64,000 nucleotides of DNA, from positions 15,490 to 79,489 of the IMG/VR virus record IMGVR_UViG_3300044712_000499; one strand, 5' to 3'. The translations under genes were made by a program, and so were the position numbers. How positions within the stretch are numbered: the stretch's first letter is position 1; each line of letters begins with the position of its first letter. Of this stretch, positions 391 through 23,893 are shown in pieces. The stretch comes from a virus. The notes below the pieces were generated by a model. The model ran no database searches. It was not told where the DNA came from and was given only the letters and a program-made list of their open reading frames with translations.

Positions 391-2913
391 CTAGATATAC
401 CTCTTTCTGAACATACCGATAGAACTTATGTCTAGACTAGGTTGCTTATTCCCCCCTGATATTATTTCTCTATGGCGGGACTGACTACCAAACTTAGCCA
501 TACAGAAAGCAGCAGCAAGGTCAAGGTGTGTCATGGACTCTGGGCCTCGTATAGCCTTAATCTCATTTAGCAGTTTGTCATGGCACTCTGCGTGACCTCT
601 GAACTCTATATGGTCTTTGATTAAACCGAAAGCATCAGACCAAGTATCTGTTGATGTATATCTTCCTGGCATTGGGTTAGGCTTGCCTGTCAAAGTATTA
701 ATATCATAGAGCATATAACCCCACATACCATGTTCTATAAGATAAGTAACAACTCTCTCCACGTTGTACTCAGGATAGCACATCGCCCCAAAGTACTGTA
801 ACGTCATTATCGCATCATCAAAATATTCTTCTTGTGATGCTGGTCTTGCCCTATATACGCATACCACTCTATCACTCTGCCAGTCTAATCTATTTTTACC
901 GCCGTCAATGGTCTTATCATATTCCCAATAGACACAGATACCGCCATCGGATTGACGAGAGTTGCTTGCACTACCAGTGAGTCTACCAATATCCTTAACA
1001 TCCGCTTTCTTAATTGATCTGAAAGGGTCAAGACCACAAGTGAATTTATCTCCTCTTACTGGTTTCCATGCAGGTAGCCATTGCATTTTTATAGGATCAA
1101 AGTAATCACATCTTATCCTTTGGTTGGTTAGCTCTGGCGGGAGTATCATAGATAGTTCCCATTTGCCTTCTACTGAGTCCGCCCAAAGAACTCTACTCTG
1201 ATTGTCGTTAGGATTCTCTCTATAAAGATTCCCTGTTCTATAGGGTTGCTTGTGAATCGTTCTATCCCTATTTATCTCAGCGAGTCTCTTATCTATTATC
1301 TCAAGATTGAATCCTGCGTTACCGGCAGAGCCCAACCAACAGTCCGCCCATTTCATAGGAAATTTTCTTCTTCTTGATCTGTAAGCCTCAAGTGCCTCCG
1401 GTGTTCCTTTAGATAGTAATGAGTCTAATTGAGATTGAAGTGTTTCTCTTGCTCCTTTGCCTGTCAGTGCAAACTTAGCCCTTGGACTATGCGCCATCTG
1501 TCTCTCTGTCGGGTCTTCAATGACAGACTTTCCCCACTTGTCAATATAACCTTCAAGTTTCTTATAGGAAGGAATGAATATCCTTGCAAGTCCCGAATAG
1601 GTCTGTCCAACTACGGGCATCCTCTCATAGAAACAAGATAACTGAGCAAGTTTATAGTATTCTAATCCTGCACCATCCATCTCCTCTACTGTGGACGGGT
1701 GAAGTGAGTAGCCAATAATATTAGTACCACCACCCCTCGACATAGCCATCTTGTTGACACTCCATCTTTCAAAGATAGATGCACGGGAATCTTTGCCTTC
1801 CTCGTCCATAAGGCTGAAGTGGAGCGTGTCTCCGTCGTTTTTGCCTACACCCGCACTTCCCGTAAAATCAATAGTACTCCCAAGTCCTTCAATATTCCAC
1901 ACGTTAGGCGGTTCAATCAACTTGAGAGATGATGGTCTTTTGCTACCCATCCATATAGGCTTAAGAAACATAGGATACTTATTCCATGCAGGAATTAACT
2001 TCTTGTAGTAGTGTTTCTCGGCATTATCCCCCTCCATTGATATGATAGTACCATAGGCGGCTTGCATAGTACTTGTGCCTTTCCATACCTTATGACAACC
2101 TCTCTGCGTTTCCCCTGCCCTCCTGAACTTAGGTGTCATCTCACCAAAAAAAGTTCTACTGCCTACATCAACCATGCGATATGTACCGTCCTCGCTCTTT
2201 ATCGCTTTCCCCGTTTCTGGATGTAGTTCTTGAAAGGTCTCTGTTGTCTCCTCAAGATACTTTGAGAATATAGAGTTCTTTCTATCCTCCTCCCTAAAGT
2301 CAGGATAAACTTCTGATTCTTTGATATACCAAAAGGCAAGATAGTCAAAGTAATCTCCTGATAGATACACGAGTTCTCCGTCATTGAACATCCAAAAGCC
2401 ATTAAGCCTCCACCACCAAATATGTTTTATCCATTGTATCTCGTCCCTATACTTATCTGACTCTTGTTCTAGTATCTCCCAGTACTTCTGATAGATACGA
2501 TACCCTTGCACAACTTCTTGGCGATTACGTACTTCTATTTCATAAAGAGATAGATACGCTCTCTCTTCTAATTTCTTAAGTGTTATAGGTACTTCTGGTC
2601 GTCTCCAAAACTGATCGTCTTTAGGTAATCCATAGTTTGTTATTAACTCTTCCTTTGGGGGTTGTGGTGTAGAAATAAAAATCGGGATTAAATCTTCATC
2701 GTCTAGGTTCACTCCAACATAATAGGGTGTATTCTTTGGTGGGGCATCACCTAAAAACTTAAGCTGACCAATGTCATAATCTCCGTAAGGATTAAAGTCT
2801 GCCGGTAGGTTTCCACTCTCCCTATAGTATTTAACTATCTGTTCAGGACGTATGCCTAGTTCTACTCGGTCAATTAAATCAGTATCTAACTCTTCTTTTT
2901 TCTTTCTCGCCAT
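391..2913 (-). CDS. terL: Terminase large subunit (crAss-like/Bacteroidota phage type)
   Basis: Walker A-like KFRRAGET, Walker B LMDEEGK, C-terminal RNase H-like GLDPF...DLAAAFCMA. The track start at 2934 (TTG) overlaps the promoter, so the ATG at 2913 (MARKKKEE) is more likely. Confidence 0.88.
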   Translation of the reverse strand: MARKKKEELDTDLIDRVELGIRPEQIVKYYRESGNLPADFNPYGDYDIGQLKFLGDAPPKNTPYYVGVNLDDEDLIPIFISTPQPPKEELITNYGLPKDDQFWRRPEVPITLKKLEERAYLSLYEIEVRNRQEVVQGYRIYQKYWEILEQESDKYRDEIQWIKHIWWWRLNGFWMFNDGELVYLSGDYFDYLAFWYIKESEVYPDFREEDRKNSIFSKYLEETTETFQELHPETGKAIKSEDGTYRMVDVGSRTFFGEMTPKFRRAGETQRGCHKVWKGTSTMQAAYGTIISMEGDNAEKHYYKKLIPAWNKYPMFLKPIWMGSKRPSSLKLIEPPNVWNIEGLGSTIDFTGSAGVGKNDGDTLHFSLMDEEGKDSRASIFERWSVNKMAMSRGGGTNIIGYSLHPSTVEEMDGAGLEYYKLAQLSCFYERMPVVGQTYSGLARIFIPSYKKLEGYIDKWGKSVIEDPTERQMAHSPRAKFALTGKGARETLQSQLDSLLSKGTPEALEAYRSRRRKFPMKWADCWLGSAGNAGFNLEIIDKRLAEINRDRTIHKQPYRTGNLYRENPNDNQSRVLWADSVEGKWELSMILPPELTNQRIRCDYFDPIKMQWLPAWKPVRGDKFTCGLDPFRSIKKADVKDIGRLTGSASNSRQSDGGICVYWEYDKTIDGGKNRLDWQSDRVVCVYRARPASQEEYFDDAIMTLQYFGAMCYPEYNVERVVTYLIEHGMWGYMLYDINTLTGKPNPMPGRYTSTDTWSDAFGLIKDHIEFRGHAECHDKLLNEIKAIRGPESMTHLDLAAAFCMAKFGSQSRHREIISGGNKQPSLDISSIGMFRKRYI

Positions 2914-2931
2914 CCATCTCTTGTTTGAATG

Positions 2932-2939
2932 CAAAGATA
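2932..2939 (-). promoter_or_regulatory. Bacteroidota sigma70-type -7 element (TATCTTTG) for terL
   Basis: Exact TAnnTTTG match 19 nt upstream of the ATG. Equivalent minus-strand boxes at 375-382, 6660-6667, 11403-11410, 12731-12738, 12783-12790, 14737-14744, 16316-16323 and 56218-56225. Confidence 0.75.
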
Positions 2940-3030
2940 CTAACTTTGGTGGGACTCATTAAATAGTCTTAGATAGTAGTAGTATTACTATCATTATTAG
3001 GATATTCTTAATGCTTTAGCGGGGTCGGAA

Positions 3031-3333: not shown

Positions 3334-3338
3334 AAGTT

Positions 3339-4853: not shown

Positions 4854-5510
4854 CTACACTTTCACATACCTATTGGTAATGCCGTACTCATCTAGTGCAG
4901 TAATATATCTTTGGTGTGCCTCTTCGTAGGTATCGTAATAACCGAGTGTCTTGCTTTTTTTATTTATCCTTATCGCAGCCATCCATCGTCCATTGGTATA
5001 ACAACATCCTTTTGCTCCGCCTATAGCATGACTGTAATTTTCCCTATTAGTAACGTATTCTAAGTTCTCAATGCAATTATTTCGTGGGTTATTATCTATG
5101 TGATTTACTTGCAGGTCGCTTGCCCCACAAAAGGCTTCCATAACTAATCGGTGAACTAAATAAGAACTAACATGAGTAATAATACTAAGATACCTACCAT
5201 TAATACTTGGATGAGTTAAGATCAGTTGCTCTCTCCCCTCTCTTCTAAAATTTAACGACTTAACTCGCCCTTTATTGCTTACAACATAACCTTTTCCAAG
5301 CGTAGGTGAAGAAGCCCATATCTCACCGTCTAAATCCATCACATAATTAGACACCCCTAACTCAAGTTTTTTAATTTCTCTCGCTATTATGGCATCTTCC
5401 TCTGTGTCAAAATAACCCAAATTATATCGAGTCCCATTATGCTCTATAACACAACGCCATCTTTCGTTGCCATTTTTAGTAATACCTGTGTGTTTTGAAT
5501 ACTTTCCCAT
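4854..5510 (-). CDS. HNH homing endonuclease with NUMOD4 and flanking AP2 domains
   Basis: AP2-like LGYFDTEEDA and LGYYDTYEEA, NUMOD4 YVVSNKGRVKS, HNH VHRLV...VNHIDNNPRNNCIENLE. Confidence 0.88.
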   Translation of the reverse strand: MGKYSKHTGITKNGNERWRCVIEHNGTRYNLGYFDTEEDAIIAREIKKLELGVSNYVMDLDGEIWASSPTLGKGYVVSNKGRVKSLNFRREGREQLILTHPSINGRYLSIITHVSSYLVHRLVMEAFCGASDLQVNHIDNNPRNNCIENLEYVTNRENYSHAIGGAKGCCYTNGRWMAAIRINKKSKTLGYYDTYEEAHQRYITALDEYGITNRYVKV

Positions 5511-5608: not shown

Positions 5609-6085
5609 CTAATTAAGCTGATTTTCTTCTAAAAGCATATATACTGCTGTGTAGTCGTGACTGACTAAAATTCTTATCATGTCCCAACCTCCGTCTGAAT
5701 ATAAAATCCAGGTATAGGCACTATTCCCATCATGGTTATAAGGGTAGCAATAGGCTATGGCAGCCTTGCCTATCGTAATCTCTGTGGTAGCTAATGTGGG
5801 GTCGTTGTCAATAAACTTATTAAAGGTTACATCCTTAGAGCCTATATCAGTATCTGCCGCATCGGTAATATTACTTAAAGCCGTATCCCATATCTTCATC
5901 CATGCACCTCCGTCTCTCGAATTAGAATGGTTATCGAAGAATCGCATCCTCTGTTTGTCCTCAAAGTCAGAAGTGATCTCATACATTCTGTTGGTATTCA
6001 GAAGGTATAGATTACCATCGGTCTTGTCGGGGACTCTACGCCCTCCGTCAATCCTCCAATCCTCTACTATTGTTAATAGAAACAT
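5609..6085 (-). CDS. Hypothetical protein (paralogue of 6104-6622)
   Basis: Shares L.N.NR, FFDN...R.G, IAY...YN...Y.W..Y..G and LLE blocks with its neighbour. Confidence 0.7.
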   Translation of the reverse strand: MFLLTIVEDWRIDGGRRVPDKTDGNLYLLNTNRMYEITSDFEDKQRMRFFDNHSNSRDGGAWMKIWDTALSNITDAADTDIGSKDVTFNKFIDNDPTLATTEITIGKAAIAYCYPYNHDGNSAYTWILYSDGGWDMIRILVSHDYTAVYMLLEENQLN

Positions 6086-6103: not shown

Positions 6104-6622
6104 TTACTGTTCTGTACTAGATGTGGTTGTTCCTGATTCGAGAAGGTCTTCTATATCCTCAAGTGAATATTTGACAAGAACCTCTCTGCGTTTAAATGCC
6201 CCGTTTCGATAGCACATCCACACATATTCAGTGGGTCTCGGATTGTACCTGTCAAAGTAAGCAATACAACTTACCGGTAATGTGGTATCCACTGTCAGAG
6301 CATCGGGGTTATTGTGCTTGCAAATAGGTAAAGTAACCATGTTTGAATGAAAAGGGACATCGTCTGTAGCTATAATGGTTGCTACTGCAATGTAGGCTTT
6401 ACCATAACTCCACCCTTCTCTCCTATCTACCTCATTATCGAAGAACTTAAACCAAGAAGTGGGAACTTGAATTGTTGAATCGTTGCCCTCGATAAGATCA
6501 CTAATCCTATTGGGGTTGATAAGAAACTCACGATAGCCTAAAAGCCTTTCGTCGAGAGGTGATACACGGTAAGCAGAATCACGCTTATCGCTCCAAGAAT
6601 AAAATTTTGTATTTACAAACAT
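6104..6622 (-). CDS. Hypothetical protein (paralogue of 5609-6085), Ser/Thr-rich tail
   Basis: As above; ends SGTTTSSTEQ; own promoter at 6660-6667. Confidence 0.7.
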   Translation of the reverse strand: MFVNTKFYSWSDKRDSAYRVSPLDERLLGYREFLINPNRISDLIEGNDSTIQVPTSWFKFFDNEVDRREGWSYGKAYIAVATIIATDDVPFHSNMVTLPICKHNNPDALTVDTTLPVSCIAYFDRYNPRPTEYVWMCYRNGAFKRREVLVKYSLEDIEDLLESGTTTSSTEQ

Positions 6623-6698: not shown

Positions 6699-7541
6699 TT
6701 AAAGACCACAGTATCCGCTATCACAATCAGTAAAGTCTGAGAAGGTTAACTCAGCGTAAGGCTTCCACGCATTTATCTGCTTAAACGTAATTTCTTTTCT
6801 AAATCTATTGCCGGTTTCATCCTCTTTACGTTCAAACCACTTCATCTTATCCGAATTATTTCTATTCATCATTGAAAGAAGTAATGGATTCTTGTGAAAG
6901 CAACCAACACAGTTGTTGTAATAACCTTCAATAAATGGCACTGGTTTATTTTTCCAATAGGCATCTACCATATCCTTTCTTATTCTATTCTCTATAAGAG
7001 GGAACTTAGGTATTCTCCATGCTATGTCTCCCCATTTATTCTGACTCTTGCGGGTTCCTACAATAGCTTTATAAGTATCAAGACCTTCACTGTTTAACTT
7101 ATCTTGCATCCTTACCATCCTATCTTCCTCTCCAAACCTAAACCCAATGTTCATATAACAAATATCCTTAACATAGCGTTGCCACCACTCAAAAATAGGT
7201 TTCATTTTAAGTTCAGTAGTACAATAACGAGCCATTAGATTGGGCAGATAATTACCTTTCTTCTTGATAATATCATCAAAGGTTTCTCCGCTAACCCAAA
7301 AGATTTCTCTCCCTATAAACTGCTCTAGTTCTAACATTATGGGTATAATAGCATCCATTTCTAAGGTTCCTATAAAATCTTTCTGTAGTTTAAGAGAAAC
7401 GGTCTTTCTTATTCCTTTGTCGGGATATTTTAACTTCTTGTCATTCGTTCTGACCAAGGCAAAGACATCATAGTCCGCAGGATAGTTCTTTGCGATATAA
7501 GACGAACTCTTACCTCCCGATAAGCTATTTATTGTTTTCAT
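6699..7541 (-). CDS. PAPS-reductase-like / adenine-nucleotide alpha hydrolase family protein
   Basis: PP-loop SLSGGKSS, RYCTTELK, NCVGCF, C-terminal CDSGYC. Confidence 0.8.
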   Translation of the reverse strand: MKTINSLSGGKSSSYIAKNYPADYDVFALVRTNDKKLKYPDKGIRKTVSLKLQKDFIGTLEMDAIIPIMLELEQFIGREIFWVSGETFDDIIKKKGNYLPNLMARYCTTELKMKPIFEWWQRYVKDICYMNIGFRFGEEDRMVRMQDKLNSEGLDTYKAIVGTRKSQNKWGDIAWRIPKFPLIENRIRKDMVDAYWKNKPVPFIEGYYNNCVGCFHKNPLLLSMMNRNNSDKMKWFERKEDETGNRFRKEITFKQINAWKPYAELTFSDFTDCDSGYCGL

Positions 7542-7879
7542 TAATCTTCTCCTAATAAATAAGTTTTCTCTGGCGTGGTTATAGAAACCCTTCTTTGTTT
7601 AAATTTAATCATTAGCCTATCCGCTAGCTCCCACGCATCATAAATCAATCGTTGTTTTTCTTTGGGAAACCTTGCATAGCTAATAAACCCAACTATTGCG
7701 CCGTCTTCCCATCCGTCTTTGTAAACAAACCTTGTGGGTGTTATGGTAACACAATTACCTGGGTATTGGCAATATCTATAACAGACATCATAAACCTCAT
7801 TGATGTTGTGCCTAATATCAGAATATTCTTCTCTTAGTCCAATCCATATCTGTATGTTAAAAGAATCAACTGTTTTCAT
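7541..7879 (-). CDS. Conserved-looking phage hypothetical protein
   Basis: Translationally coupled on both sides; CVTITPT.F.Y..G.E.G pattern. Confidence 0.65.
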   Translation of the reverse strand: MKTVDSFNIQIWIGLREEYSDIRHNINEVYDVCYRYCQYPGNCVTITPTRFVYKDGWEDGAIVGFISYARFPKEKQRLIYDAWELADRLMIKFKQRRVSITTPEKTYLLGED

Positions 7880-8886
7880 CTTGTCTTAATTGGTAAATTG
7901 AACTGTTCGGAAAACCAAGACAGATCATGAGTGAATATCTGCTTATTTCTCGCTCGTATCTTAAGTACGTTAGCGTAGTTTTTCTTAATTAGAGTTCTTG
8001 CTTTGTTAAGGTTTAATTCAGGGTATAGGAAGTTAGATATTTTATTCCTTTGGTCGGCATCCATAACCATAGTTTCGAGTACCCACAATCTATTCCAGAA
8101 CATCTTCAAGGGACTTCGTGGCCCCTTCTCGTACCTATTAACTCCCTCTCTGTTGAAGAAATGAGTTGCCTCTACATCTGGCATGAGATAGCATCCGCCA
8201 CCTACCAGCCAACTCTTTAAACTAAGATGAGGCTCAAGTGTACCCCATTGGATGTGCCCCTGCCACCTCACTTTAGGGTCAGTGTCAAAGCCACCAATGA
8301 ACTGATAGTATCTCTTTGATGTCCAATAAAAGGCTCCCATTAGACATGAGATAGGACTTATGTCGTCTGATACAACATCTGTCTTCCATCTGCCTTTGAA
8401 TATATCAGCGTAGTTAGGCTTTTGACGGAGCTTAGAGAAAGGTGGAAGGTCGTCTTTGTCAACAGTTATAACTAGGTCTGCCCCGTAACGCTTATGAAAG
8501 TTACCATCTTTGTCGGGCTTATCTCCTATGCAGACTGCACAGCCTATTGAGTTAGGTCTCTCTGTTACTGCTTTTATTACTTTGGTATCCCATCCCTTTT
8601 GAGTGTAGATATCGCATCCAAGTATGACTATAATTTCTCCTTTGGCGGCTTCCACCCCTCTATCCAGTGAGTAGCCGACACCACGAGAGATAGGATTCTG
8701 AATAACCCTTACGACTGAATTATCAATCATTAACGGCCTAAACTTGCCATTATGACTGAAAGAACCGTCATTAACGATGATAATTTCAATATCCGAGTTA
8801 TCCTCGGCAGTTGCTAGCAGGTTGTTTACGACGTTATGAACCTGCTCATCGTCATTTTTAAAAGGGATCACAACGCTAACGGTCAT
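7876..8886 (-). CDS. GT-A glycosyltransferase (GT2 N-terminus; C-terminal half resembles polypeptide GalNAc-transferases)
   Basis: VSVVIPFKN, EIIIVNDGS, GVGYSLDRGVEAAKGE, then SCLMGAF...IGGFD...WGTLEPHLSLKSWLVGG...P...H.F. Confidence 0.8.
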   Translation of the reverse strand: MTVSVVIPFKNDDEQVHNVVNNLLATAEDNSDIEIIIVNDGSFSHNGKFRPLMIDNSVVRVIQNPISRGVGYSLDRGVEAAKGEIIVILGCDIYTQKGWDTKVIKAVTERPNSIGCAVCIGDKPDKDGNFHKRYGADLVITVDKDDLPPFSKLRQKPNYADIFKGRWKTDVVSDDISPISCLMGAFYWTSKRYYQFIGGFDTDPKVRWQGHIQWGTLEPHLSLKSWLVGGGCYLMPDVEATHFFNREGVNRYEKGPRSPLKMFWNRLWVLETMVMDADQRNKISNFLYPELNLNKARTLIKKNYANVLKIRARNKQIFTHDLSWFSEQFNLPIKTR

Positions 8887-9038: not shown

Positions 9039-9830
9039 TTACTCATTGCTTTTCCTTTTGATTACCATGGCAATTTTTCTTCTAGGAATCAGAATATACA
9101 ACTCATCTCCATTGAACGTGGCAGAGTAACTCTTTCGCTCAAGCGGGAGGTGTACCGTATTTCTCTCAAGCAATACCTCATCTCCTGGTTGTAGGTCTTG
9201 GTGGTCTATGTAGGATTTAACTTTATATGATCTATTGCAGGTTCCAACATACCGGACTATAGCTCTTGTCTTGTCTATTTTGTCTTCGCTTGTAACGTCT
9301 AAGGCTGATAACTTTGGGAGGTTTACTGTTTGACAGAGTACGTAGCCGTTAAGAGGGATGACTTTAATAACTTCCCTTAATCCACCCTCAAAGTTTCCTC
9401 CAAGTTTCCACAGTTCGACTTCTTTTCTCTTTGCCACATAGCAGTCAGCATAAGGCAGTATCTTGTAGGTCTTGCCCTCGCAAAGGACTTCATGCGAATT
9501 TGCCGATTCTATTAAAGAGAAAAAAACCACGTCTGATTCTTGTAGTTCCATATCGGTATCCCATTCCATAGAATTAGGATCATTCTCATTGTAGTAGAGC
9601 TTTGGTGGGCACTTGTAAACTATACCCCATACCTCTTGAAGATTTGCGGGATGAGAGTCCGAACCTTCAGCGTAATTTACTGACCGATTAAACCCATATA
9701 CGATTCCGCTTCTCGTTGTAGCACCATCGCTAGAGTACGTCATCTCTACAATCACTTGGTTGCACTTGTCGGTTAAGATACCTTCATCAAGTTGCTTTCT
9801 TGTCAGTTCTATCTTTGGGTTTTCTATCAT
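9039..9830 (-). CDS. Tandem double GroES-like (Cpn10) protein
   Basis: Domain 1: TTRSGIV...GIV...DVVFF...EGKTYKIL. Domain 2: IPLNGYVL...AIVRYVG...LQPGDEVL. Confidence 0.7.
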   Translation of the reverse strand: MIENPKIELTRKQLDEGILTDKCNQVIVEMTYSSDGATTRSGIVYGFNRSVNYAEGSDSHPANLQEVWGIVYKCPPKLYYNENDPNSMEWDTDMELQESDVVFFSLIESANSHEVLCEGKTYKILPYADCYVAKRKEVELWKLGGNFEGGLREVIKVIPLNGYVLCQTVNLPKLSALDVTSEDKIDKTRAIVRYVGTCNRSYKVKSYIDHQDLQPGDEVLLERNTVHLPLERKSYSATFNGDELYILIPRRKIAMVIKRKSNE

Positions 9831-10287: not shown

Positions 10288-10500
10288 TTAAAACATATTC
10301 CATGTTTTATCCATGTTTAAAATACCATCAGCTTTGAAATTATCATCTTGCAATTCAAGATTCCCGTTTTTATACATTTTATCCCTATTTATTTTAAGGA
10401 CTTCAATAGCTTTTTCTTTTGCTTCTTCTTCTGACTCAGATTTAACATGGATACAAATAATTGCTTTATAGCCAAATGTTACTTGATAATTTGTTTTCAT
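10288..10500 (-). CDS. Hypothetical protein
   Basis: 70-aa ORF with a V.A.SEEEA.EKA-type motif. Confidence 0.65.
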   Translation of the reverse strand: MKTNYQVTFGYKAIICIHVKSESEEEAKEKAIEVLKINRDKMYKNGNLELQDDNFKADGILNMDKTWNMF

Positions 10501-11198
10501 TTCATTATTTGATTTAGTATTTCTCTTTCCTCAGTACTTAAAATTTCGTATAGCTTTTGCGGGTCTTCCCTCTCCTTGATCTTCTTACACCAAAAGTCAA
10601 CACGATTCAGGTTTTGCTTGCTCTTAATATCGAATACTACTGCATCATCCACAATCTTACTCGTCTGCACATGTGGTTTGATAGCTAAAGTAACAAGCCC
10701 GTCAAGCCCCCAGTTCTTATCTTTAGTCCATGGTCGCCAGTCAACCTTGTCAAGCACGCTAGAGCTTATAGTCTTGCACACTCCTAGCATACTCTTTCCT
10801 GTGAATTTAACCATGTCTCCTTTGTATATCCCTGCCGTGCCAAAGAAATAGATGTTCTGTACTCCTACTAAGTCATAGCCTTTCTGTACTTCTGTATTTA
10901 TTCTTTGGTAGGTTTCTGTACTCATAACATTGTCGGAACCCAAAATCATGCAATAGTCTACTTTTATTGACCTCATATAAGCCATGGCACGGTTGTATTT
11001 CTCTGAAACGGGGTAGTTCTCCTGTTCTATGTGTACTATATGCCCGTTTTCACATATCCCTTTGTCCTCTGAGCCACTTACTACCACTGCGGGTATGTAT
11101 GTCTCGGTTTCACGTCTTAAACGGTTCACAGACTCCACCCACAAGCTCAAAATGAGAGGTCTATTATGGTTAGCGCAAATAAGTCCCAATGTTTTCAT
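10497..11198 (-). CDS. GT2-like glycosyltransferase
   Basis: LGLICANHNRP, KYNRAM, MILGSDN, WGLD. Start refined to MKTLG at 11198, coupled to the upstream small ORF. Confidence 0.7.
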   Translation of the reverse strand: MKTLGLICANHNRPLILSLWVESVNRLRRETETYIPAVVVSGSEDKGICENGHIVHIEQENYPVSEKYNRAMAYMRSIKVDYCMILGSDNVMSTETYQRINTEVQKGYDLVGVQNIYFFGTAGIYKGDMVKFTGKSMLGVCKTISSSVLDKVDWRPWTKDKNWGLDGLVTLAIKPHVQTSKIVDDAVVFDIKSKQNLNRVDFWCKKIKEREDPQKLYEILSTEEREILNQIMK

Positions 11199-11359
11199 TA
11201 TCCTTTTGGTATAAAGAAAGTCCACGTCTTTGCCTGTGGATGCTCGGCTCTCCAAAACTTATATTTAATAAAGCCAACTCCGAAAACCAAAGAAGCAATG
11301 GCAAGAACTAGTCCTACCACAAGCATATTATACTTTAATTTTTGAAAAAACTTTTTCAT
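11198..11359 (-). CDS. Small single-TM protein (53 aa, not in track)
   Basis: MKKFFQKLKYNMLVVGLVLAIASLVFGVGFIKYKFWRAEHPQAKTWTFFIPKG; follows the promoter at 11403-11410; TAATG coupling to the next gene. Confidence 0.6.
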   Translation of the reverse strand: MKKFFQKLKYNMLVVGLVLAIASLVFGVGFIKYKFWRAEHPQAKTWTFFIPKG

Positions 11360-16394: not shown

Positions 16395-16487
16395 ATGACA
16401 ACAAATCAATTCTATGATGACAATAAGGAGTGGATACTGCTCTTTGGTGTTTTGGTGGTAGCTACTTTGATAATGTGGTTTGCATGA
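16395..16487 (+). CDS. 30-aa single-TM peptide (not in track)
   Basis: MTTNQFYDDNKEWILLFGVLVVATLIMWFA, immediately after the promoter at 16369-16376. Confidence 0.45.
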   Translation: MTTNQFYDDNKEWILLFGVLVVATLIMWFA

Positions 16488-16507
16488 TACGAGAATCAAA
16501 AGGTAAT

Positions 16508-17146
16508 ATGTATTCTTGGGTTACGCACACATGGAATACTGTTAAGGGAGAATGCCCACATGGTTGTACTTATTGCTATATGAAGCGATGGGGTACACAG
16601 ACTCCTGTCAGATTTGATTATGATGAACTAAAGACAGACCTAGGATCGGGCAATATTATCTTTGTCGGCTCTAGTTGCGATTTATTTGCAGAAGCTATCC
16701 CTAGTGAATGGATTCACAACACACTACAACACTGTAATATTTACGATTCAAATGAGTATTTATTTCAAAGTAAGAACCCCAAAGGATTTGCTTATATAAG
16801 GCAACACCAGATACCAAAATACAGACTTTGCACTACAATAGAAACAAATAGGGTTTATCCTAAAGAGATGCAACTATCGCCATCCCCTATGGAAAGAGCA
16901 CTTGCATTATCTAAGTATGTTTTGGATTATCGGTATGTGACCATTGAGCCTATTATGGACTTCGATATTGATGAGTTGGTAACGCTGATTGAAATGATTG
17001 CGCCCGATCAAGTAAATATAGGAGCAGACAGTGGCAACAACGACTTACCCGAACCGTCTAAAGATAAAGTTATATCTCTTATAGAAGAACTATCTAGGTT
17101 TACTACCATAGATAGAAAGACTAACTTAGCAAGGCTTTTAAAATGA
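16508..17146 (+). CDS. DUF5131 / phage Gp37-Gp68 radical-SAM-like protein
   Basis: TWNTVKGECPHGCTYCY (CxxxCxxC), FVGSSCDLF, FQSKNP, VTIEPI. Start refined to MYSW. Confidence 0.82.
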   Translation: MYSWVTHTWNTVKGECPHGCTYCYMKRWGTQTPVRFDYDELKTDLGSGNIIFVGSSCDLFAEAIPSEWIHNTLQHCNIYDSNEYLFQSKNPKGFAYIRQHQIPKYRLCTTIETNRVYPKEMQLSPSPMERALALSKYVLDYRYVTIEPIMDFDIDELVTLIEMIAPDQVNIGADSGNNDLPEPSKDKVISLIEELSRFTTIDRKTNLARLLK

Positions 17147-17727
17147 TAACCTACCTTATCAATAGAGAAGATCGCCCCCAAAGGCTTGCTCATGCTAGAG
17201 AACAACTACAAGCACAGAACTTAAATGCTCATGTGTTTAAGGCTATAGTGGGTTCTCCTGGTTGGAAGGGCTGTCGAGATTCCCACGTAAGTCTCATGGA
17301 GAGATGCCGTAACGAAGAGACGTTCCAAATCCTTGAAGACGATGTACTTTTCTTAGGCGACTACCATTCTGCTGTTGAAAATGCAATGTGGGAACTGCCT
17401 AATGAATGGGATGCTTTGTTTCTTGGGGCATCACCGCAAGAGCCTTTTGAACGCTACTCTGAACATCTATTTAAGATGGGAAAAGCCTTTACAACACATG
17501 CGATCATCTGGCATACACGTTATAAGGGCGCAGTAGAGTTCATCCTATCCAATAAGAAGGACATACATAAAATTGATGTTTTCTTTAACGATTTTATTTA
17601 CTCTAACTTTAATTGCTACTGTATCTATCCATTATTGTGTATTCAATCTGGCTCTTTTTCTTCAGACACATGTAAGGTAAGCGATGTGTCAACTATATCA
17701 AAAAATTATAATTTATTTTGTATATGA
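17143..17727 (+). CDS. GT25-family glycosyltransferase
   Basis: YLINREDRPQRL, GCRDSH, ILEDDV, WDALFLG, TTHA, ID. Confidence 0.8.
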   Translation: MITYLINREDRPQRLAHAREQLQAQNLNAHVFKAIVGSPGWKGCRDSHVSLMERCRNEETFQILEDDVLFLGDYHSAVENAMWELPNEWDALFLGASPQEPFERYSEHLFKMGKAFTTHAIIWHTRYKGAVEFILSNKKDIHKIDVFFNDFIYSNFNCYCIYPLLCIQSGSFSSDTCKVSDVSTISKNYNLFCI

Positions 17728-18815
17728 TAGGGGATAGAAATTACGGAGAAAGTGGCGTATATATAATACAATCAAAGACAAAACCAAACAGGGTATACGT
17801 TGGTAGTGCGGTAGCTGTTGAAAGAAGAAGGTGGGAGCATACAACTGCATTAAGGAAGGGCAAGCATCACTCTCATAAATTACAAAATCATTTTAATAAA
17901 TACGGAGAGAATGATTTAATTTTTGATGTTATAGAGAGCGGTGATTATATAGACAAAAATCACTTACTTTCAAGGGAGCAAGGTTGGTTTTATCATTTTG
18001 ATGACAAAAAAACAGGCAAGCCATATTTCAATGAGTGCGCATTAGCAGGCAGTGTTTTGGGTATTAAACAATCTGAGGAGACAAAGAAGAAGAAGTCTCT
18101 TGCCATAAAAGGTCGTAAAAGAAGGGCAAAAACGCAGATGGAAAAAGATCATCAATCAGATATGTTAAAAGGGAAACCTCTTTCTGATGTGCATAAAGCA
18201 AAACTAAAAGGACATAAGCATAGCGAAGAAACAAAGGCTGTACTTAGAGAGAAACTTAAGGGAAATAAAAATGGAGTTGGTAATAAATCTAGCAAGGGAA
18301 AACCATCCCTAAAAAAGGGTAAAAAACTTCCTTCTCATAGTCCGCAAACAATTTTAAATCAATCTATTGGAATGAAGAAATGGTGGGATAACCATCCAAT
18401 GGAGAAAAATAAAAGGAGCGATATGTTTTCAGGGGAAAAAAATCCGTTTTATGGGAAAAAGCACAAACCAGAGTCTATCATGAAAGGTGTAAGTAAAAAT
18501 AAGGGTAGGAAGGCATCCTCTGAAACCAAGGAAAAACAAAGTATTTCTTTAAAAAAAGCGTGGGCAGAAGGGAGGAATAGAGGTTCTTTTGGTATTCATA
18601 CGCCAATGCCACTAACAACTAGAAATGCACTTAAGACAGCGAATGAAATACCTATCTTACAATTTAACGATAAGAATATATTTATAAAGGAATGGGGGTC
18701 AATTAAGAATGCGTGTATGTGTCTTGGAATATCTTATGCTACAATAATTAAAAGTATTAAACTCGGTATTATTGTTAAGAATAATTTTGCATTTCAATAT
18801 AAACCCGATGCGTAA
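17718..18815 (+). CDS. GIY-YIG homing endonuclease with NUMOD3 repeats
   Basis: SGVYIIQ...YVGSAV...R...H...L....H....LQ..FNKYG; repeated HSEETK/SEETK units; NUMOD1-like tail. Confidence 0.88.
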   Translation: MYMIGDRNYGESGVYIIQSKTKPNRVYVGSAVAVERRRWEHTTALRKGKHHSHKLQNHFNKYGENDLIFDVIESGDYIDKNHLLSREQGWFYHFDDKKTGKPYFNECALAGSVLGIKQSEETKKKKSLAIKGRKRRAKTQMEKDHQSDMLKGKPLSDVHKAKLKGHKHSEETKAVLREKLKGNKNGVGNKSSKGKPSLKKGKKLPSHSPQTILNQSIGMKKWWDNHPMEKNKRSDMFSGEKNPFYGKKHKPESIMKGVSKNKGRKASSETKEKQSISLKKAWAEGRNRGSFGIHTPMPLTTRNALKTANEIPILQFNDKNIFIKEWGSIKNACMCLGISYATIIKSIKLGIIVKNNFAFQYKPDA

Positions 18816-18836
18816 TAATATTAATTTTAATAAATA

Positions 18837-20057
18837 TTGTATATGAAGATAAATAAATGCCCTATAACAGATGCCGATAATGGGGTTAAGTATCTTGACC
18901 TTGGGGATATTCCTTTAGTAAACAATCTTTGTAGTACAAGAGAAAGTTCTTTAGCGTGCAAGAGATATCCTTTATCGGTTCAGCTATTCCAAGGATCGGG
19001 ATTATCATGCCTCACAGAGCTTATCCCTAAAGAAGAACTATTTAGCCACTACCTATATAAATCAGGAGTTAGTAAACCATATATTAGCCACTGTTCTCAG
19101 ATGTATGATTACCTAGATAAGTATGTTAATCTTGAATATGGAGGTATAGTAGTTGACATAGGCGGGAATGACGGTAGTTTGCTCAATGAGTTTAAGAAAA
19201 AGAATGGTACACTAACCCTTATTAATGTTGACCCGTGCATAGAGTTTGCTGATGAGAACATGAGAGAGGGTATTTCATATCATAACGCTTTCTTTGGAGA
19301 GGAGGTTGTACTTCCAGCCAAAGCCACTCTTATCATATCTACCAATGTCTTTCAGCATAATTGGGATATAAGATCATTTGTTAAGGGGGTACATGAAAAT
19401 CTTGATACTAATGGCATTTGGTGTTTAGAGTTCCCATATTGGCTTACTACTATCTTAACCGACAACTACGATCAAGTATATCACGAGCATGTGTATTACT
19501 ACATTTTAAGTAGTCTGCTTACGTTATTTAAGCAAGAAGGGCTTAAGGTGATTAATGTATCTTACCACCCGATTCACGCAGGAACGCTAAGGGTCATAAG
19601 TGCTAAGGAAGAAAGCAGTCTTGTTGCGGACAGTAGCATTGATTCGTTTCTTAATCTTGAGCAACTTATGACAGAGAGCTTTTATATTAAGTGGGGTAAC
19701 TCTATTCAAACTAAGATTAGCGAGTGTGAGGATTTTATCAAAGGATTTGTGCATGTTTACAATGCTAGAATATTCGGTTTTGGTGCTGCCGCCAAGGGCT
19801 GTATATTTCTAAATACCTGCCATCTTACTGACACAGACATGCCGTTTGTCATTGATGACACGCCAGAGAAACAAGGCATGTTTATTCCTGGCACGGGTAT
19901 TGAGATAGTAAGTAGGGATATCTTGAAGAAATGGCATCCAAATTACATTTTGATACTTGCCCATAACTTCAAGGATTATATTATCAAGTCGTTAAGAAAC
20001 GATGGCTATATAGGCGGATTTATTATAATGTTTCCAGAAATAGAAGTAATAGACTAA
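18837..20057 (+). CDS. NDP-sugar C-methyltransferase (TylCIII/NovU-like)
   Basis: N-terminal Zn-binding-type region, VDIGGNDG, YDQVYHEHVYYY, HAGTLR, GFGAAAKG, DDTPEKQG.FIPGT. Confidence 0.88.
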   Translation: MYMKINKCPITDADNGVKYLDLGDIPLVNNLCSTRESSLACKRYPLSVQLFQGSGLSCLTELIPKEELFSHYLYKSGVSKPYISHCSQMYDYLDKYVNLEYGGIVVDIGGNDGSLLNEFKKKNGTLTLINVDPCIEFADENMREGISYHNAFFGEEVVLPAKATLIISTNVFQHNWDIRSFVKGVHENLDTNGIWCLEFPYWLTTILTDNYDQVYHEHVYYYILSSLLTLFKQEGLKVINVSYHPIHAGTLRVISAKEESSLVADSSIDSFLNLEQLMTESFYIKWGNSIQTKISECEDFIKGFVHVYNARIFGFGAAAKGCIFLNTCHLTDTDMPFVIDDTPEKQGMFIPGTGIEIVSRDILKKWHPNYILILAHNFKDYIIKSLRNDGYIGGFIIMFPEIEVID

Positions 20058-20058
20058 T

Positions 20059-20601
20059 ATGCAAGAATTATCTCTTTTAGACTTAAACACAAGAGGCGTT
20101 GCAGGACTCTCTTTCTCAGATAAGGGAACACTTCATAGCTATCTGCCTTATTATGATGTATTGTTTAGCCCTTTCCGATATAGGTCTATAAACATCTTTG
20201 AAGTGGGCTATCAGCACGGAGGTAGTTGTATGTTATTTAGCCTTTACTTTTCCGATGCTAAGATACTCGCTATTGATACCGATGGGTGTGTGCCTTTACC
20301 AGAGTCGGGGCGAATACTTGTTGATGTTCTTGATATCGCAGGTCTTACTCCGGCTTACTTTGATAATTTCATTCCCGACATAGCCATAGATGATGGTTCT
20401 CATACAATAGAAGATCAGATAAGGTTTATTCGTCTTGTTTATCCCGTTTTAAGAGAAGGTGGTATGCTTATCGTTGAGGATATTCAGAATATTGATAAAC
20501 AAAAGGAAATATTTGATCTTCTTAATATTCCATATACCATCTATGACTTAAGACACATCAAGGGAAGATATGACGATGTTTTTTTAGTTTTTAATAAATA
20601 A
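20059..20601 (+). CDS. Class I SAM-dependent methyltransferase (sugar O-methyltransferase-like)
   Basis: DKGTLHSY..YYD, EVGYQHGGS, IDDGSH, GGMLIVEDI. Confidence 0.8.
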   Translation: MQELSLLDLNTRGVAGLSFSDKGTLHSYLPYYDVLFSPFRYRSINIFEVGYQHGGSCMLFSLYFSDAKILAIDTDGCVPLPESGRILVDVLDIAGLTPAYFDNFIPDIAIDDGSHTIEDQIRFIRLVYPVLREGGMLIVEDIQNIDKQKEIFDLLNIPYTIYDLRHIKGRYDDVFLVFNK

Positions 20602-20604
20602 TCC

Positions 20605-21366
20605 ATGAATAAGATAGTTATTGCCTATCACGCCTACTTATATGGCAATCGCTATATGGAGATGGTAGTTGATCAGCTAAGAAAAATTAGTAGTGCTATT
20701 TGGCATGAAGATACTCAGTCATTGGAGGTAAACTTATTTCCACTGTGTCACAAAATGTACATTGGTATTGTTGATACTCCCACAAAGAAGCCTAGTCATG
20801 GAGTCGAATGGCTAACTAATTGGTTTAATACTAAGTCAAGTAAACTTGATTGCGATGTTATATGCCCTAAACTTGAAGTGGTTGTTTATCCAAAGAATGA
20901 AGAGTTAAGGGGAACATTAAGATGGATACGTGACTATGCAAAAGAGAATCCAGATGATTATATTCTATTTTTTCACACCAAGGGGATAACTCATCTGACT
21001 GAAGCTACCGAGGACTGGCGTAAGTATATGGAGTATTTTGTTCTTAAAAGATGGAAGGATTGTGTGCAGAAGTTAGATGAGGGGTACGACTGTTGCGGTG
21101 TTTTATGGAATACGGACACACCAATAGGAATCTGGCCTCATTTCTCCGGTGCATTCTTTTGGGCAAAGGCTAGTTATATAAATACACTTGATCATAGTTA
21201 TTTGGAATCAAAGTGGCGATACATGATGGAGTTTTGGATAGGGAGTAATCCTAATGCCAAGGTTTATGAGTTTCATAATTCTGGATTTAACTCAAAAGAA
21301 AGACTACTAGCAAGACAAGGACATTATAATATTCCATATCCCCCTAAAGAATATGAGATAAAATGA
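20605..21366 (+). CDS. Uncharacterised protein, possibly glycosyltransferase-like
   Basis: HTKGI...WRKYMEYF...YDCCG...HFSGAFFWA pattern; embedded in the glycan operon. Confidence 0.5.
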   Translation: MNKIVIAYHAYLYGNRYMEMVVDQLRKISSAIWHEDTQSLEVNLFPLCHKMYIGIVDTPTKKPSHGVEWLTNWFNTKSSKLDCDVICPKLEVVVYPKNEELRGTLRWIRDYAKENPDDYILFFHTKGITHLTEATEDWRKYMEYFVLKRWKDCVQKLDEGYDCCGVLWNTDTPIGIWPHFSGAFFWAKASYINTLDHSYLESKWRYMMEFWIGSNPNAKVYEFHNSGFNSKERLLARQGHYNIPYPPKEYEIK

Positions 21367-21950
21367 GTACGCTTCACGTAATATGTACAGCATTCAATCG
21401 TCCTATTCAACTTAGGATGATGATAGACTCTTTCCTCTTACAAACAGACGGAAGGTGGAAATTGACTGTTATACATGACGGGCAAGCATCACAAGAGATT
21501 CATGATATTATTGGATGGTATAACGATAACCGGATAACATTCTTTGAGACGGATATTGTTGGCGGTAGTTATGGTCATCCTAATAGAAAGTATATGTTAA
21601 ATCAGATACAGGGAGACAAGGATGACTTTGTATTAATAACGAATGAAGATAATTATTACGTTCCCGCTTTTGTAGAATACTTTCTTGGGGCATGTACGCC
21701 TCGTGTGGGCATGGTTTATTGTAACACTATTCATTCTTATCTTAAATACAATATTCTAGTAACTAAGGTTAAGGAGAATTATATAGACATGGGGTCTTTT
21801 ATTGTAAGATTAGCAGTAGCAAAGGCAACTGGTTTTAATCATGCACACCTCTCGGCAGATGGTAAATATGCAGAAGAGTGTTTTCAAACGTGCCGTAAGC
21901 GAGGGTTGATGCCCGTGTGTATTAATAAACCTCTTTTTGTTCATAATTGA
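21363..21950 (+). CDS. GT2 glycosyltransferase
   Basis: VICTAFNRP, VIHDG, GHPNR, NEDNYY. Confidence 0.8.
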   Translation: MSTLHVICTAFNRPIQLRMMIDSFLLQTDGRWKLTVIHDGQASQEIHDIIGWYNDNRITFFETDIVGGSYGHPNRKYMLNQIQGDKDDFVLITNEDNYYVPAFVEYFLGACTPRVGMVYCNTIHSYLKYNILVTKVKENYIDMGSFIVRLAVAKATGFNHAHLSADGKYAEECFQTCRKRGLMPVCINKPLFVHN

Positions 21951-22642
21951 AAGACATGAAAAATTTACTAATAACAACAATAGGAAAGTATAATCATTTC
22001 TCTGCGTGGATTGATGGAGAAAGAGATTATGACATAGCCGTAGTTATTTATGATGACTCAGTTCAGCCAAAGGTAAGTGACAACACTTGCTTGGTCGTTG
22101 AACGCTTTAAGACTTTCAAGTACGAGGGTATTAAAAGATTATTTGACTTGCACCCCACGTTATCTGACTACGACTACTTTTGGATGCCGGATGAGGATAT
22201 ATGGGCTAAACCTGAAGATATAAACAGAATCTTTACTCTGACAAAGGAAAGAGAACTTTGGTTGTCGCAACCAAGCATACTAGATACCCACGACAGCTTT
22301 CCTTCATGGAAGTGTTTTGCCCATAGACCCGACGTAGAACTTGTTCATACTAACTTTATAGAGGTTATGTGTCCGTGTGTTTCACGCAAGGCAATGAAGA
22401 AGATTTACCCCCTGCTTAATAAGTCTAAGTCGGGATGGGGGCTAGACCTCATTTGGAGTTGGCTTGGAGTTGACGAGAAGATGGGCATACTGAACTCTGT
22501 ACCCGTTAAGCACACACGTCCCGTTGGTGGAGGAACGCTTTACTCTGAGTTAGCCGCCAAGGGTATCTATCCATCAAGAGAAAGAAAGAAGTTAATGAAA
22601 GAGTTCGGCATTCCAAGTATTGACATAAAAACATGGATATAG
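21947..22642 (+). CDS. DUF707-like GT-A glycosyltransferase
   Basis: YDYFWMPDEDI, LSQPS, TNFIEVMCP, GWGLDLIW, H.RP. Confidence 0.72.
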   Translation: MKDMKNLLITTIGKYNHFSAWIDGERDYDIAVVIYDDSVQPKVSDNTCLVVERFKTFKYEGIKRLFDLHPTLSDYDYFWMPDEDIWAKPEDINRIFTLTKERELWLSQPSILDTHDSFPSWKCFAHRPDVELVHTNFIEVMCPCVSRKAMKKIYPLLNKSKSGWGLDLIWSWLGVDEKMGILNSVPVKHTRPVGGGTLYSELAAKGIYPSRERKKLMKEFGIPSIDIKTWI

Positions 22643-23319
22643 TCTTTCTTATAACCACTTACAATAGAAGGGAATCCTGCCAAAGACTTGTTGACTCTCT
22701 ACAAGGACTAGGAGATATAGTCGTTCTAGGAGATCATGTGGACTACACCATTAGTGGGTGTAGCTTTACAAACCTACCGGAGCACTATGGAAGATCAGGT
22801 TATTGGTTTACTGTTAAGCGTCTCTTTGCCATGAGGGGTAAGCATAAATACTTCATGATGCTTCCTGATGATTTCATGATGTGTGAAACGCAAGTTATGG
22901 AAGCTATAAAGTTATGGGAGGGTATTAACGATCCGCAAAAGATATGCCTAAACCTATACATGGACAGATTAGGTCTTAAGTGTTGGACTAATTTTTATCC
23001 TACATCATTGGGTAATGTTTGGCAGACAGGATGGGTAGATATGTGTTTCCTTTGCGAGGAATCCTTCTTTTGTAATTTCAAACTTAGGCAGAAGATATCC
23101 CATACTAGTAGTGGAGTGGGCGCACAGATAAGCAGACAGTTGTTTCACAGGAAGTTTCATTTATACCAGGTTAAGGAGAGTCTTGTAACGCCCCAAAGTG
23201 AACATTCTATATCCCAAATGCACAATGAACAAAACAGTAACGGTGGGAATCGCCAGTCTCAAAGAGAGAGAAAAGTCTATGATACTCGTCGTAGAGGCAG
23301 TAAAAGATCAATGCGATAA
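22633..23319 (+). CDS. GT2-like glycosyltransferase
   Basis: ITTYNRRESC..L, MLPDDF, GVGAQIS. The polar tail overlaps the next gene by 95 nt. Confidence 0.68.
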   Translation: MDIVFLITTYNRRESCQRLVDSLQGLGDIVVLGDHVDYTISGCSFTNLPEHYGRSGYWFTVKRLFAMRGKHKYFMMLPDDFMMCETQVMEAIKLWEGINDPQKICLNLYMDRLGLKCWTNFYPTSLGNVWQTGWVDMCFLCEESFFCNFKLRQKISHTSSGVGAQISRQLFHRKFHLYQVKESLVTPQSEHSISQMHNEQNSNGGNRQSQRERKVYDTRRRGSKRSMR

Positions 23320-23893
23320 GGTAGTAGTAGGACTTAATAACTATACGAGGGTTCCCGAAGCACTATCTTGCTATTCCAATGTGGAATGTCATCTGCTCGA
23401 TAATTCTTTGGGAGATGCGGCAAAGATGCTCACAGTTGGTTCATGTGACGGTTACTATGCCACCTTGGACGACGATCTATTGCCCCCAAAGACCTTCATT
23501 CAAGATTTGATTAGAGGCATAGACCGGTATAATGGATTCATATCTTTTCATGGTAAGGTGTACAATAGGGGGTTCAGTGGGTTTAAAAAACCGTCTATCG
23601 TCTATCGTTGTCTTGGTTCTGTGGCTGATGACGTCCGTGTCAACTTCATAGGTACGGGATGTTCGGGTTTTCACACAGACCGCCTAAAGCTATCAATAGA
23701 TATGTTCCCTATAAAAAATATGGCTGACGTACACGTTTCTAAGGCATGTCATGACCAAGGGGTACAAATGGTCGTCCTTAAGCATGATCGTGGCTATTTC
23801 GCCTATCAGCAACCTTCAGGAGGGACAATTTGGGAGTCGTTTAGAGGAGCAACCCCCGTACAGGATAAAATAATGAGAACTTTTCTTAAATAA
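23225..23893 (+). CDS. GT2-like glycosyltransferase
   Basis: VGIAS...RE, GDAAK, TLDDDL, GTG, NMADV. Start refined to MNKTV. Confidence 0.72.
   Translation: MNKTVTVGIASLKEREKSMILVVEAVKDQCDKVVVGLNNYTRVPEALSCYSNVECHLLDNSLGDAAKMLTVGSCDGYYATLDDDLLPPKTFIQDLIRGIDRYNGFISFHGKVYNRGFSGFKKPSIVYRCLGSVADDVRVNFIGTGCSGFHTDRLKLSIDMFPIKNMADVHVSKACHDQGVQMVVLKHDRGYFAYQQPSGGTIWESFRGATPVQDKIMRTFLK

Follow-up and report, generated by a model that had tools for sequence, protein, structure and literature searches.

A 64,000-nucleotide stretch of viral DNA (hereafter the window), which spans bases 15490-79489 of IMG/VR record IMGVR_UViG_3300044712_000499, a complete viral record of 82,580 bp with direct terminal repeats, carries a glycosyltransferase (GT) gene whose product resembles the polypeptide N-acetylgalactosaminyltransferases (ppGalNAc-Ts or GalNAc-Ts) of family GT27. 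On the same minus strand, three genes downstream, lies the gene of a 172-residue late protein with a tail rich in threonine and serine, the candidate acceptor. The features of these two genes are as follows.

7876..8886, minus strand: GT27-like glycosyltransferase of the GT-A fold (the GT), 336 aa with an ATG start, recognized from Pfam, PDB sequence matches, an AlphaFold2 (AF2) model, Foldseek and VIA-align
8761..8772, minus strand: N39-D40-G41-S42 (NDGS), nucleotide-sugar binding motif of the GT, DDxS in relatives; coordinates checked
8611..8619, minus strand: G90-C91-D92, standing where GT27 has its D-x-H metal motif; HMMER aligns LGCD with LDAH of the GalNAc-Ts
8233..8247, minus strand: W214-G-T-L-E218 (WGTLE), counterpart of the GT27 Gal/GalNAc-T motif WGGEN in the HMMER alignment
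8161..8163, minus strand: H242 in EATHFFNR, counterpart by alignment of the His in GT27 GH(V/I)FR
6104..6622, minus strand: 172-aa late protein, candidate acceptor, three genes downstream of the GT
6107..6139, minus strand: C-terminal tail ESGTTTSSTEQ of the 172-aa protein, proposed O-glycosylation site

The open reading frame (ORF) of the GT shares 11 nt with the end of a 56-aa ORF upstream and 4 nt with the beginning of a 112-aa ORF downstream. Residues 4-130 match the GT2 nucleotide-binding family PF00535 (E-value 1.8e-16; 61 bits against a cut-off of 23.3), and a Pfam scan at E-values up to 0.1 returned neither Glyco_transf_7C nor PF11397, nor any other domain besides GT2. Because its 19-residue hydropathy maximum is 0.98, the protein is judged to be soluble and to lack a membrane helix or other hydrophobic segment. 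It stops at residue 336, where the catalytic domain ends, without a C-terminal ricin-type (CBM13) lectin domain.

Sequence searches against the PDB already pointed to the ppGalNAc-Ts. With phmmer, the single GT sequence aligned over residues 2-257 with residues 184-428 of a GalNAc-T3 chain (6s22) and matched several ppGalNAc-Ts at E-values of 1e-6 to 3e-3, with T12, T4 and T2 matched in both halves. When a profile of 25 homologues was used, the ppGalNAc-T matches strengthened to E-values of 5e-12 to 7e-7, and a profile of the C-terminal half alone found GT27 chains in 12 of its 14 matches, including all eight best (best E-values 1.1e-3 to 1.3e-3). Along this half, WGTLE...VGGG...THFFNR of the phage enzyme corresponds to WGGENxE...CGG...GH(V/I)FR of GT27, such that W, G, GG, H, F and R are kept and the Glu of GGE is replaced by Leu. 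The His of the GT27 motif GH(V/I)FR, to which H242 corresponds, is the third Mn ligand. In the DxD position of the 25-sequence family, D92 is invariant and the first residue is G, A, S, D, C or N.

The AF2 model of the GT has a predicted local distance difference test (pLDDT) score of 90.5 and a predicted template-modelling (pTM) score of 0.90. When this model was compared with the PDB using Foldseek, approximately the top 48 ranks were all occupied by ppGalNAc-Ts, with E-values of 6.5e-18 to 3e-15, query template-modelling scores (TMq) of up to 0.72 and sequence identities of 15-19%. VIA-align, an all-against-representatives structure search independent of Foldseek, listed 50 entries and gave the same family: Toxoplasma gondii GalNAc-T3 aligned with model residues 1-333 (Z 27.3, 279 residues, root-mean-square deviation 2.6) and mouse GalNAc-T1 with residues 1-336 (Z 27.2, 288 residues). 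The latter alignment covers residues 116-427 of the mouse chain, which amounts, in our reading, to nearly the complete catalytic domain. After GT27, the next family (AvpGT, B4GALNT1, WrtF and K4CP) followed at Z 17.2-17.5, a gap of about 10 units. On the predicted model, the closest solved structures are thus the peptide-acting ppGalNAc-Ts, and the modelled fold covers the entire GT27 catalytic domain. A preliminary description of this locus, made from the letters alone, had likened ORF 7876-8886 to the ppGalNAc-Ts, listed GT27-like motifs along it and read its DxH motif as GCD. The likeness, far above what chance would give, is borne out by the Foldseek ranking, by Z-scores of 27.3 and 27.2 against 17.5 for the next family and by the PDB sequence matches, while the motifs (NDGS, WGTLE, H242 and G90-C91-D92 opposite LDAH) are all present at the coordinates given above. 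That description had also proposed the AlphaFold and Foldseek comparison, and lipid- or polysaccharide-acting GT2 enzymes did not emerge as the closest solved structures. The GT would work like GT27 and yet is no member of that family by its defining features, given that DxH motif, lectin domain and membrane anchor are all absent.

These comparisons also bear on a different explanation, namely that the GT is an elongating or otherwise sugar-acting enzyme that works in a phage glycan pathway and adds its sugar to a glycan, to an intermediate (lipid-linked or soluble) or to a surface polymer of the host, the poly-Thr tail of the 172-aa protein not being its substrate. We regard this as possible but rather unlikely. 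The best PHROG label for the GT, phrog_841 'GtrB-like O-antigen conversion' (3.5e-08), would agree with it, although the match is confined to the N-terminal half; the Gal/GalNAc-T-type C-terminal motif is likewise present in sugar-acting GT7 and GT2 enzymes, and the ESM Atlas neighbours of the GT include bacterial clusters combining GT2 with Glyco_transf_7C. Moreover, the genome contains at least four other GT-like genes as well as sugar methyltransferases. However, the GT-A structures that act on sugars or lipids (AvpGT, B4GALNT1, K4CP, TarS, TarP, dolichol-phosphate mannose synthase (DPMS), GtrB and ArnC) reach only Z 11.6-17.5 in VIA-align, about 10 below GT27. GtrB, ArnC and DPMS in particular stand at 11.6-14.6 against 27, and the GT lacks the membrane helices that these three possess.

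To place the enzyme within its family, relatives were collected at several depths. The close GT family has 24 members with 42-89% identity, and the member contigs that were examined are all phage-like. An exhaustive profile search recovered 144 cluster representatives at E-values up to 1e-30 and 3,141 at E-values up to 1e-10, and 58 full-length representatives made up the wider-family alignment (A4). Near-invariant positions of this alignment are D40, S42, W99, W167, E218, S222, K224, H242 and N265; individual counts are 57/58 for D40, 56/58 for S42, 58/58 for G215, 55/58 for E218 and 57/58 for H242. The metal-motif columns fall into two states. D-x-H, typically DAHMRF or DSHMRF and thus the exact GT27 motif, is present in 25 of the 58 sequences, and (G/A/T)-x-D in 32, the window GT included; there is one outlier and there are no mixed forms. 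Position 217, opposite the Glu of WGGE in the HMMER alignment, follows the same division: 31 of the 32 (G/A/T)-x-D sequences have Leu there, and 24 of the 25 D-x-H sequences have D, S, E or T. Metal motif and position 217 switch together, as though the active site had been remodelled in a concerted manner. Because the two states occur in 25 and 32 of the 58 sequences without mixing, the GT is, as judged from sequence, a derived active-site variant within a phage GT27-like family that otherwise bears the GT27 signature.

Some relatives of the GT are fused to further domains: an S-adenosylmethionine (SAM) methyltransferase (P0047, P0053, P0055, P0064), a peptidase M3 (P0138) or a second GT2 domain. 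In P0059 and P0069, a GT60-like PF11397 domain precedes the GT27-like domain. P0059, a distant fused relative, is encoded in a tail module of the lambda-like type, and a protein next to it contains 18 threonines in a row. When the GT was compared by tblastn with 50,697 GenBank phage records, nothing matched at 1e-5, and E-values up to 1 brought up N-terminal fragments of GT2 enzymes alone; the 172-aa protein and a putative capsid-region protein of this phage also had no match in GenBank phages. Since these three proteins are unmatched there, no cultured relative or virion proteome is at hand. Our literature search found no paper describing a phage GT27-like family. These results are best explained if the GT is a member of a so far undescribed family, carried mostly by phages, in which eukaryotic GT27 has its closest counterpart among the viruses of prokaryotes.

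Among prokaryote genomes, the single match to the close GT family was an 84.9-kb contig binned in a Bacteroidales metagenome-assembled genome (MAG). This contig is almost surely a phage contig and thus gives a hint of the host only. The large terminase of the window phage is distantly related to the terminases of Cellulophaga, Flavobacterium and Tenacibaculum phages (23-26% identity). Given this terminase kinship and the phage-sized contig in the Bacteroidales MAG, the host is probably a member of Bacteroidota. The bacterial clusters among the ESM Atlas neighbours of the GT comprise Bacteroidota fusions of GT2 with LanC-like domains and Bacillota proteins combining GT2 with Glyco_transf_7C. 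In the Bacteroidota fusions, a GT2 domain of very similar shape (TM 0.80) is joined to a LanC-like lanthionine-synthetase domain, which suggests, as far as modelled shapes allow, that peptide-directed GTs of the same shape may exist within the likely host phylum.

The candidate acceptor was characterized through 49 homologues of the 172-aa protein (40-89% identity), none of which has a Pfam or PHROG family. Its tail ESGTTTSSTEQ is the densest Ser/Thr run of the whole 82.6-kb genome, with Ser or Thr at 7 of 10 residues. At least seven Ser/Thr occur among the last 25 residues in 44 of the 49 homologues, compared with 10-18% in the body of the protein. A homologue typically ends in an acidic helix, ETG, a run of about eight or more Thr/Ser and a short acidic end, and G164 is invariant; hence the position and composition of the tail are conserved, whereas its sequence and length are not. 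Homologues with a short tail (HGTLTTPEQ) occur in L069 and L070, whose contigs end in homing-endonuclease genes just upstream, so that the presence of a GT is unreadable there. The AF2 model of the 172-aa protein has a pLDDT of 85.6. Its likeness to small DNA-binding beta folds (RemA, Sac7d-derived binders, LytTR) was below a meaningful level and was not used, and a feature search in the Atlas returned nothing usable. A paralogue without a Thr/Ser tail is encoded next to it:

5609..6085, minus strand: 158-aa paralogue of the 172-aa protein (BLASTP, 27% identity over 132 aa, E-value 7e-12), without a Thr/Ser tail

This paralogue keeps the same position in relatives. Given the site of the 172-aa gene just upstream of the terminase, its product may have a packaging role.

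The pairing of GT and 172-aa protein was assessed by complex prediction, which gave a score of 0.48 (runs 0.54, 0.48 and 0.40), compared with 0.00 for the best of three controls; at least 93% of contacts agreed between runs, and the partner had a pLDDT of at least 82. When the method was calibrated, 58 of 80 solved complexes and 2 of 110 mismatched pairs reached the mark. Scores of 0.60 or under accounted for the passes of 7 of the 80 solved complexes and of both mismatches, and a pass in this range is more often wrong than right unless the pairing is already likely. The predicted complex therefore lends weak support to the pairing. It also bears on the idea that the GT glycosylates Ser/Thr of other proteins, such as capsid or tail proteins, and that the tail of the 172-aa protein is an unmodified flexible linker, which we consider improbable. 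Several structural proteins of this phage contain 21-22% Ser/Thr, the neighbour tail is degenerate in L003, L007 and L009 even though the GT is kept, and the poly-Thr neighbours found in other lineages are tail proteins, all of which would fit this idea. Nevertheless, no other protein of the genome has a Ser/Thr run as dense as that of the 172-aa protein, the composition of the tail, if not its sequence, is conserved in the 44 tailed homologues, and the prediction of 0.48 against 0.00 favours the 172-aa protein, if weakly, as partner.

The association between such enzymes and Thr-rich proteins was further examined in 65 viral or metagenomic loci of the wider GT family. The ORF directly upstream of the GT had at least 9 Ser/Thr per 12 residues in 13 of 64 loci; under the same test, the figures were 4/60 at position -2, 6/58 at position -3 and 17/896 for ORFs more than two genes away. 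Because many of these loci are related, the GTs were clustered at 50% identity, which gave 26 clusters, and the run criterion was set at no fewer than 8 per 12 within three genes. A poly-Ser/Thr ORF was found within three genes of the GT in 11 of the 26 clusters, and positive clusters include both active-site states. In a null model of random anchors in the same loci (2000 draws), the mean fraction was 0.165 and the maximum 0.348. If the GT acted on sugars alone, the 15 clusters lacking such an ORF would be readily understood; that the observed enrichment exceeds all 2000 draws speaks against such a role. The poly-Thr neighbours include two crAss tail hub protein B-domain proteins, a tail-fibre-J-like protein and a Gly-rich fibre-like protein. 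In L034-L040 (crAss-like contigs of ~93-102 kb), up to three successive genes upstream (-1 to -3) of a D-x-H GT each carry a poly-Thr linker, and the first of these genes in L034 and L039 encodes a crAss tail hub protein B domain. Thus, crAss-like phages may glycosylate their tail appendages. Two acceptors had been put forward in the preliminary description. The tail of 6104-6622 remains a good candidate in light of the 44 tailed homologues out of 49, the adjoining position of the gene and the GT in relatives and the enrichment of poly-Thr neighbours elsewhere. The product of 47740-48885, with 21% Ser/Thr overall, lacks both a low-complexity run and a conserved connection with the GT, and was for these reasons rejected as a mucin-like acceptor.

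The GT gene is part of a minus-strand block that leads into the packaging genes. Its order is C5-methyltransferase (11441-12223), 252-aa protein (10497-11255), small ORFs, 263-aa protein (9039-9830), 56-aa ORF and GT, followed by the 112-aa protein, a phosphoadenosine phosphosulfate (PAPS)-reductase-like gene (6699-7541), the 172-aa protein (6104-6622), the 158-aa paralogue (5609-6085), an HNH/AP2 endonuclease and the terminase. Other features relevant to this arrangement are listed below.

391..2934, minus strand: large terminase (phrog_6681, 1.5e-46), downstream of the GT on the same strand
10497..11255, minus strand: 252-aa protein, probable second small GT-A enzyme, with a weak PHROG match to beta-1,4-glycosyltransferase (E-value 0.0019)
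16430..23893, plus strand: glycan-tailoring island with GT25, sugar C-methyltransferase, O-methyltransferase-like, weak GT2, DUF707 and DUF5131 genes, from Pfam and PHROG

The terminase indicates that the packaging and structural genes begin with the GT block, and the portal and virion structural proteins lie beyond the window, at L067 13460-15484, 9438-10883 and 816-5693. The order 252-aa homologue, 263-aa homologue, GT, 172-aa homologue, 158-aa homologue and terminase is kept in L002-L007, L009 and L071; L002 (GCA_040960625.1, JBFOMW010000745.1) is a related phage contig with a GT 48% and a terminase 76% identical to those of the window. This retention of the GT beside the Thr-tailed protein in relatives is a further point against a purely sugar-acting enzyme. 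Homing endonucleases interrupt the conserved order at varying points in the relatives. HNH/AP2/NUMOD4 homing endonuclease genes are located at 4854-5510 (minus strand) in the window, 9747-10466 in L005, 9112-9825 in L006 and 8285-8935 in L071; in L005, L006 and L071 the gene falls between the GT and the 172-aa gene, and in the window it follows the 158-aa paralogue. Mobile endonucleases apparently have a hot spot in the GT block. At 6699-7879 (minus strand), between the GT and the 172-aa gene, the window carries the PAPS-reductase-like gene (phrog_424, 5.9e-18) together with a phrog_4848 gene. This pair is present in this phage only and in none of the relatives examined, and it looks like an inserted two-gene module.

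Part of this neighbourhood could be read in terms of DNA modification. Phage enzymes such as the T4 glucosyltransferases and the TET-associated phage GTs glycosylate a modified base of the phage DNA, and the GT could in the same way shield the genome from restriction, a role that we consider very improbable. The gene of the C5-cytosine methyltransferase (PF00145, 2.1e-43) is on the strand of the GT, 2.5 kb upstream, with homologues in the same block of L003, and the PAPS-reductase-like gene is downstream of the GT. However, the complete genome has no match to a hydroxymethylase of the thymidylate-synthase type (Thymidylat_synt), in a search whose control was positive in 10 of 14 genomes, and the PAPS-reductase-like gene is missing from that position in all relatives examined. 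The 50 entries of the VIA-align list include no DNA glycosyltransferase. A Tet_JBP match was also not obtained, which counts for little since the control for that search was silent everywhere.

Other genes of the phage may act after the GT. The homologue of the 252-aa protein accompanies the GT in L002, L003 and L006-L009, including L008, where the other synteny is lost, and the Atlas neighbours of the 252-aa protein are viral clusters, part of them with PF00535. This protein is probably a second, partner glycosyltransferase, a lead only, and the genes of the island at 16430-23893 are possible elongating or decorating enzymes. In the related phage L003, three genes at 210-3453 are of the Polysacc_synt_2, Epimerase and Epimerase_2 types. 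By sequence, the trio resembles a UDP-6-deoxy-N-acetylhexosamine (UDP-6-deoxy-HexNAc, FucNAc-type) pathway and thereby hints at the kind of donor sugars that these phages make. The largest gene of the window is a 2219-aa ORF at 56228-62887 (minus strand).

Taken together, we favour, by a modest degree of belief, the reading in which the GT is a soluble cytoplasmic GT-A enzyme that starts O-glycosylation of the Thr/Ser tail of the 172-aa protein. Its fold without a membrane segment, its conserved nucleotide-, metal- and sugar-site residues, its gene neighbourhood and its adjacency to the Thr/Ser-tailed protein are observed. In the proposed mechanism, the GT would bind a uridine diphosphate (UDP)-sugar via N39-D40-G41-S42, and a divalent metal would be held by D92 and H242; D92 would replace the His of DxH, the first Asp having been lost in step with the appearance of Leu217. 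Late in infection, the enzyme would place the first sugar in the cytoplasm on Thr/Ser hydroxyls of the flexible ESGTTTSSTEQ tail, and the 10497-11255 product and the enzymes of the island at 16430-23893 could then extend or decorate this sugar. More broadly, and with somewhat greater reserve, it is conceivable that tailed phages of Bacteroidota and other hosts own a mucin-type O-glycosylation, with a lectin-less cytoplasmic cousin of GT27 that exists in two active-site states and starts glycans on poly-Thr tails or linkers of late proteins. In this phage, the target would be the small product of a gene that lies between those of the enzyme and the terminase. Two features are new here: the active site in its G/A-x-D state, and a likely target that is small, not a fibre and encoded close to the terminase.

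Several observations weigh against this interpretation. The canonical DxH motif is missing from the GT, as is a lectin domain, and likeness in the GT-A fold leaves the acceptor unfixed. By shape, the nearest ESM Atlas neighbours of the GT (TM 0.78-0.84) belong to GT2 clusters of viruses and bacteria that are uncharacterised, and not to GT27. The fold of the 172-aa protein finds nothing matching in the PDB (best Z 4.6) or BFVD (best E-value 1.3e-2), and the protein carries no virion annotation and sits where small terminase subunits usually lie. Its tail in the window is short, with 7 Ser/Thr compared with typically 8-15 in the last 25 residues of most homologues. The tail is weak in L003, and in the divergent lineage of L007, L009 and L010 the neighbour has only GGGTTSTFTS in its place, followed by 15 more residues. 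The enrichment of poly-Thr neighbours, at 11 of 26 clusters, is partial.

Mucin-type O-glycosylation, which GT27 enzymes initiate, is considered to have been invented by eukaryotes, and the only phage self-glycosylation documented experimentally that we know of concerns a few mycobacteriophages with unrelated enzymes. If the proposed role is correct, the GT would offer a simple soluble model of how GT27-type enzymes recognize Thr-rich peptides. It would also bear on the origin of GT27, since the mucin-starting enzymes of animals and apicomplexans would have in the phage family a counterpart from prokaryotic viruses, and possibly a relative by descent. Sugar-coated proteins would then be expected in uncultured aquatic and gut phages, including crAss-like phages, where they could affect adsorption, mucus adherence and immune recognition. 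For bacterial glyco-engineering, the GT and the tail would constitute a compact pair of enzyme and tag. Furthermore, the non-mixing switch between D-x-H and G/A-x-D amounts to an experiment by nature on how the GT-A fold binds metal and donor.

Three known systems invite comparison besides GT27 itself. The GT60 cytoplasmic polypeptide alpha-GlcNAc-transferases (PF11397) are soluble, cytoplasmic enzymes that act directly on protein hydroxyls; the relatives P0059 and P0069 carry a PF11397-like domain, whereas the window GT has no PF11397 match. With GtrB, DPMS and ArnC, the GT has the N-terminal nucleotide-binding half in common (PF00535, phrog_841). These enzymes differ in having C-terminal membrane helices and no WGxxE...GHxF half, the opposite of the phage GT, in line with their Z-scores of 11.6-14.6. 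The mycobacteriophages Che8, Corndog and Myrna reportedly encode GTs that modify their own capsid and tail tube proteins (Freeman et al. 2023, Cell Host Microbe 31:1216, as summarized in PMC12363180). Those GTs (Che8 gp110, Corndog gp38) are not sequence relatives of the window enzyme, which has no full-length match in the 50,697 GenBank phages, presumably including those phages, and whereas their acceptors are capsid and tail tube proteins, the candidate here is a small non-capsid protein encoded upstream of the terminase.

The comparison with GT27 is the closest. GT27 enzymes pass GalNAc from UDP-GalNAc to Ser/Thr of peptides with retention of configuration; for the phage GT, the conserved tail and the enriched poly-Thr neighbours give contextual support to an activity of this kind. 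The phage GT differs from that family in lacking the ricin-type lectin, the signal anchor and the stem, in being cytoplasmic rather than Golgi-lumenal and in being encoded by a bacteriophage gene; it has G-C-D in place of DxH and Leu in place of the Glu of WGGE, and the two share 15-19% identity. Nevertheless, the GT-A catalytic domain of GT27, a family that comprises human GalNAc-T2, T4, T10 and T12, mouse T1, Drosophila PGANT9 and Toxoplasma GalNAc-T3, superposes with it end to end (Z 27.2-27.3). The DDxS/NDGS and WGxxE motifs and the His of GHxF(R) are common to both, many members of the phage family have D-x-H, and Thr-rich low-complexity segments are the likely acceptors of the phage GT.

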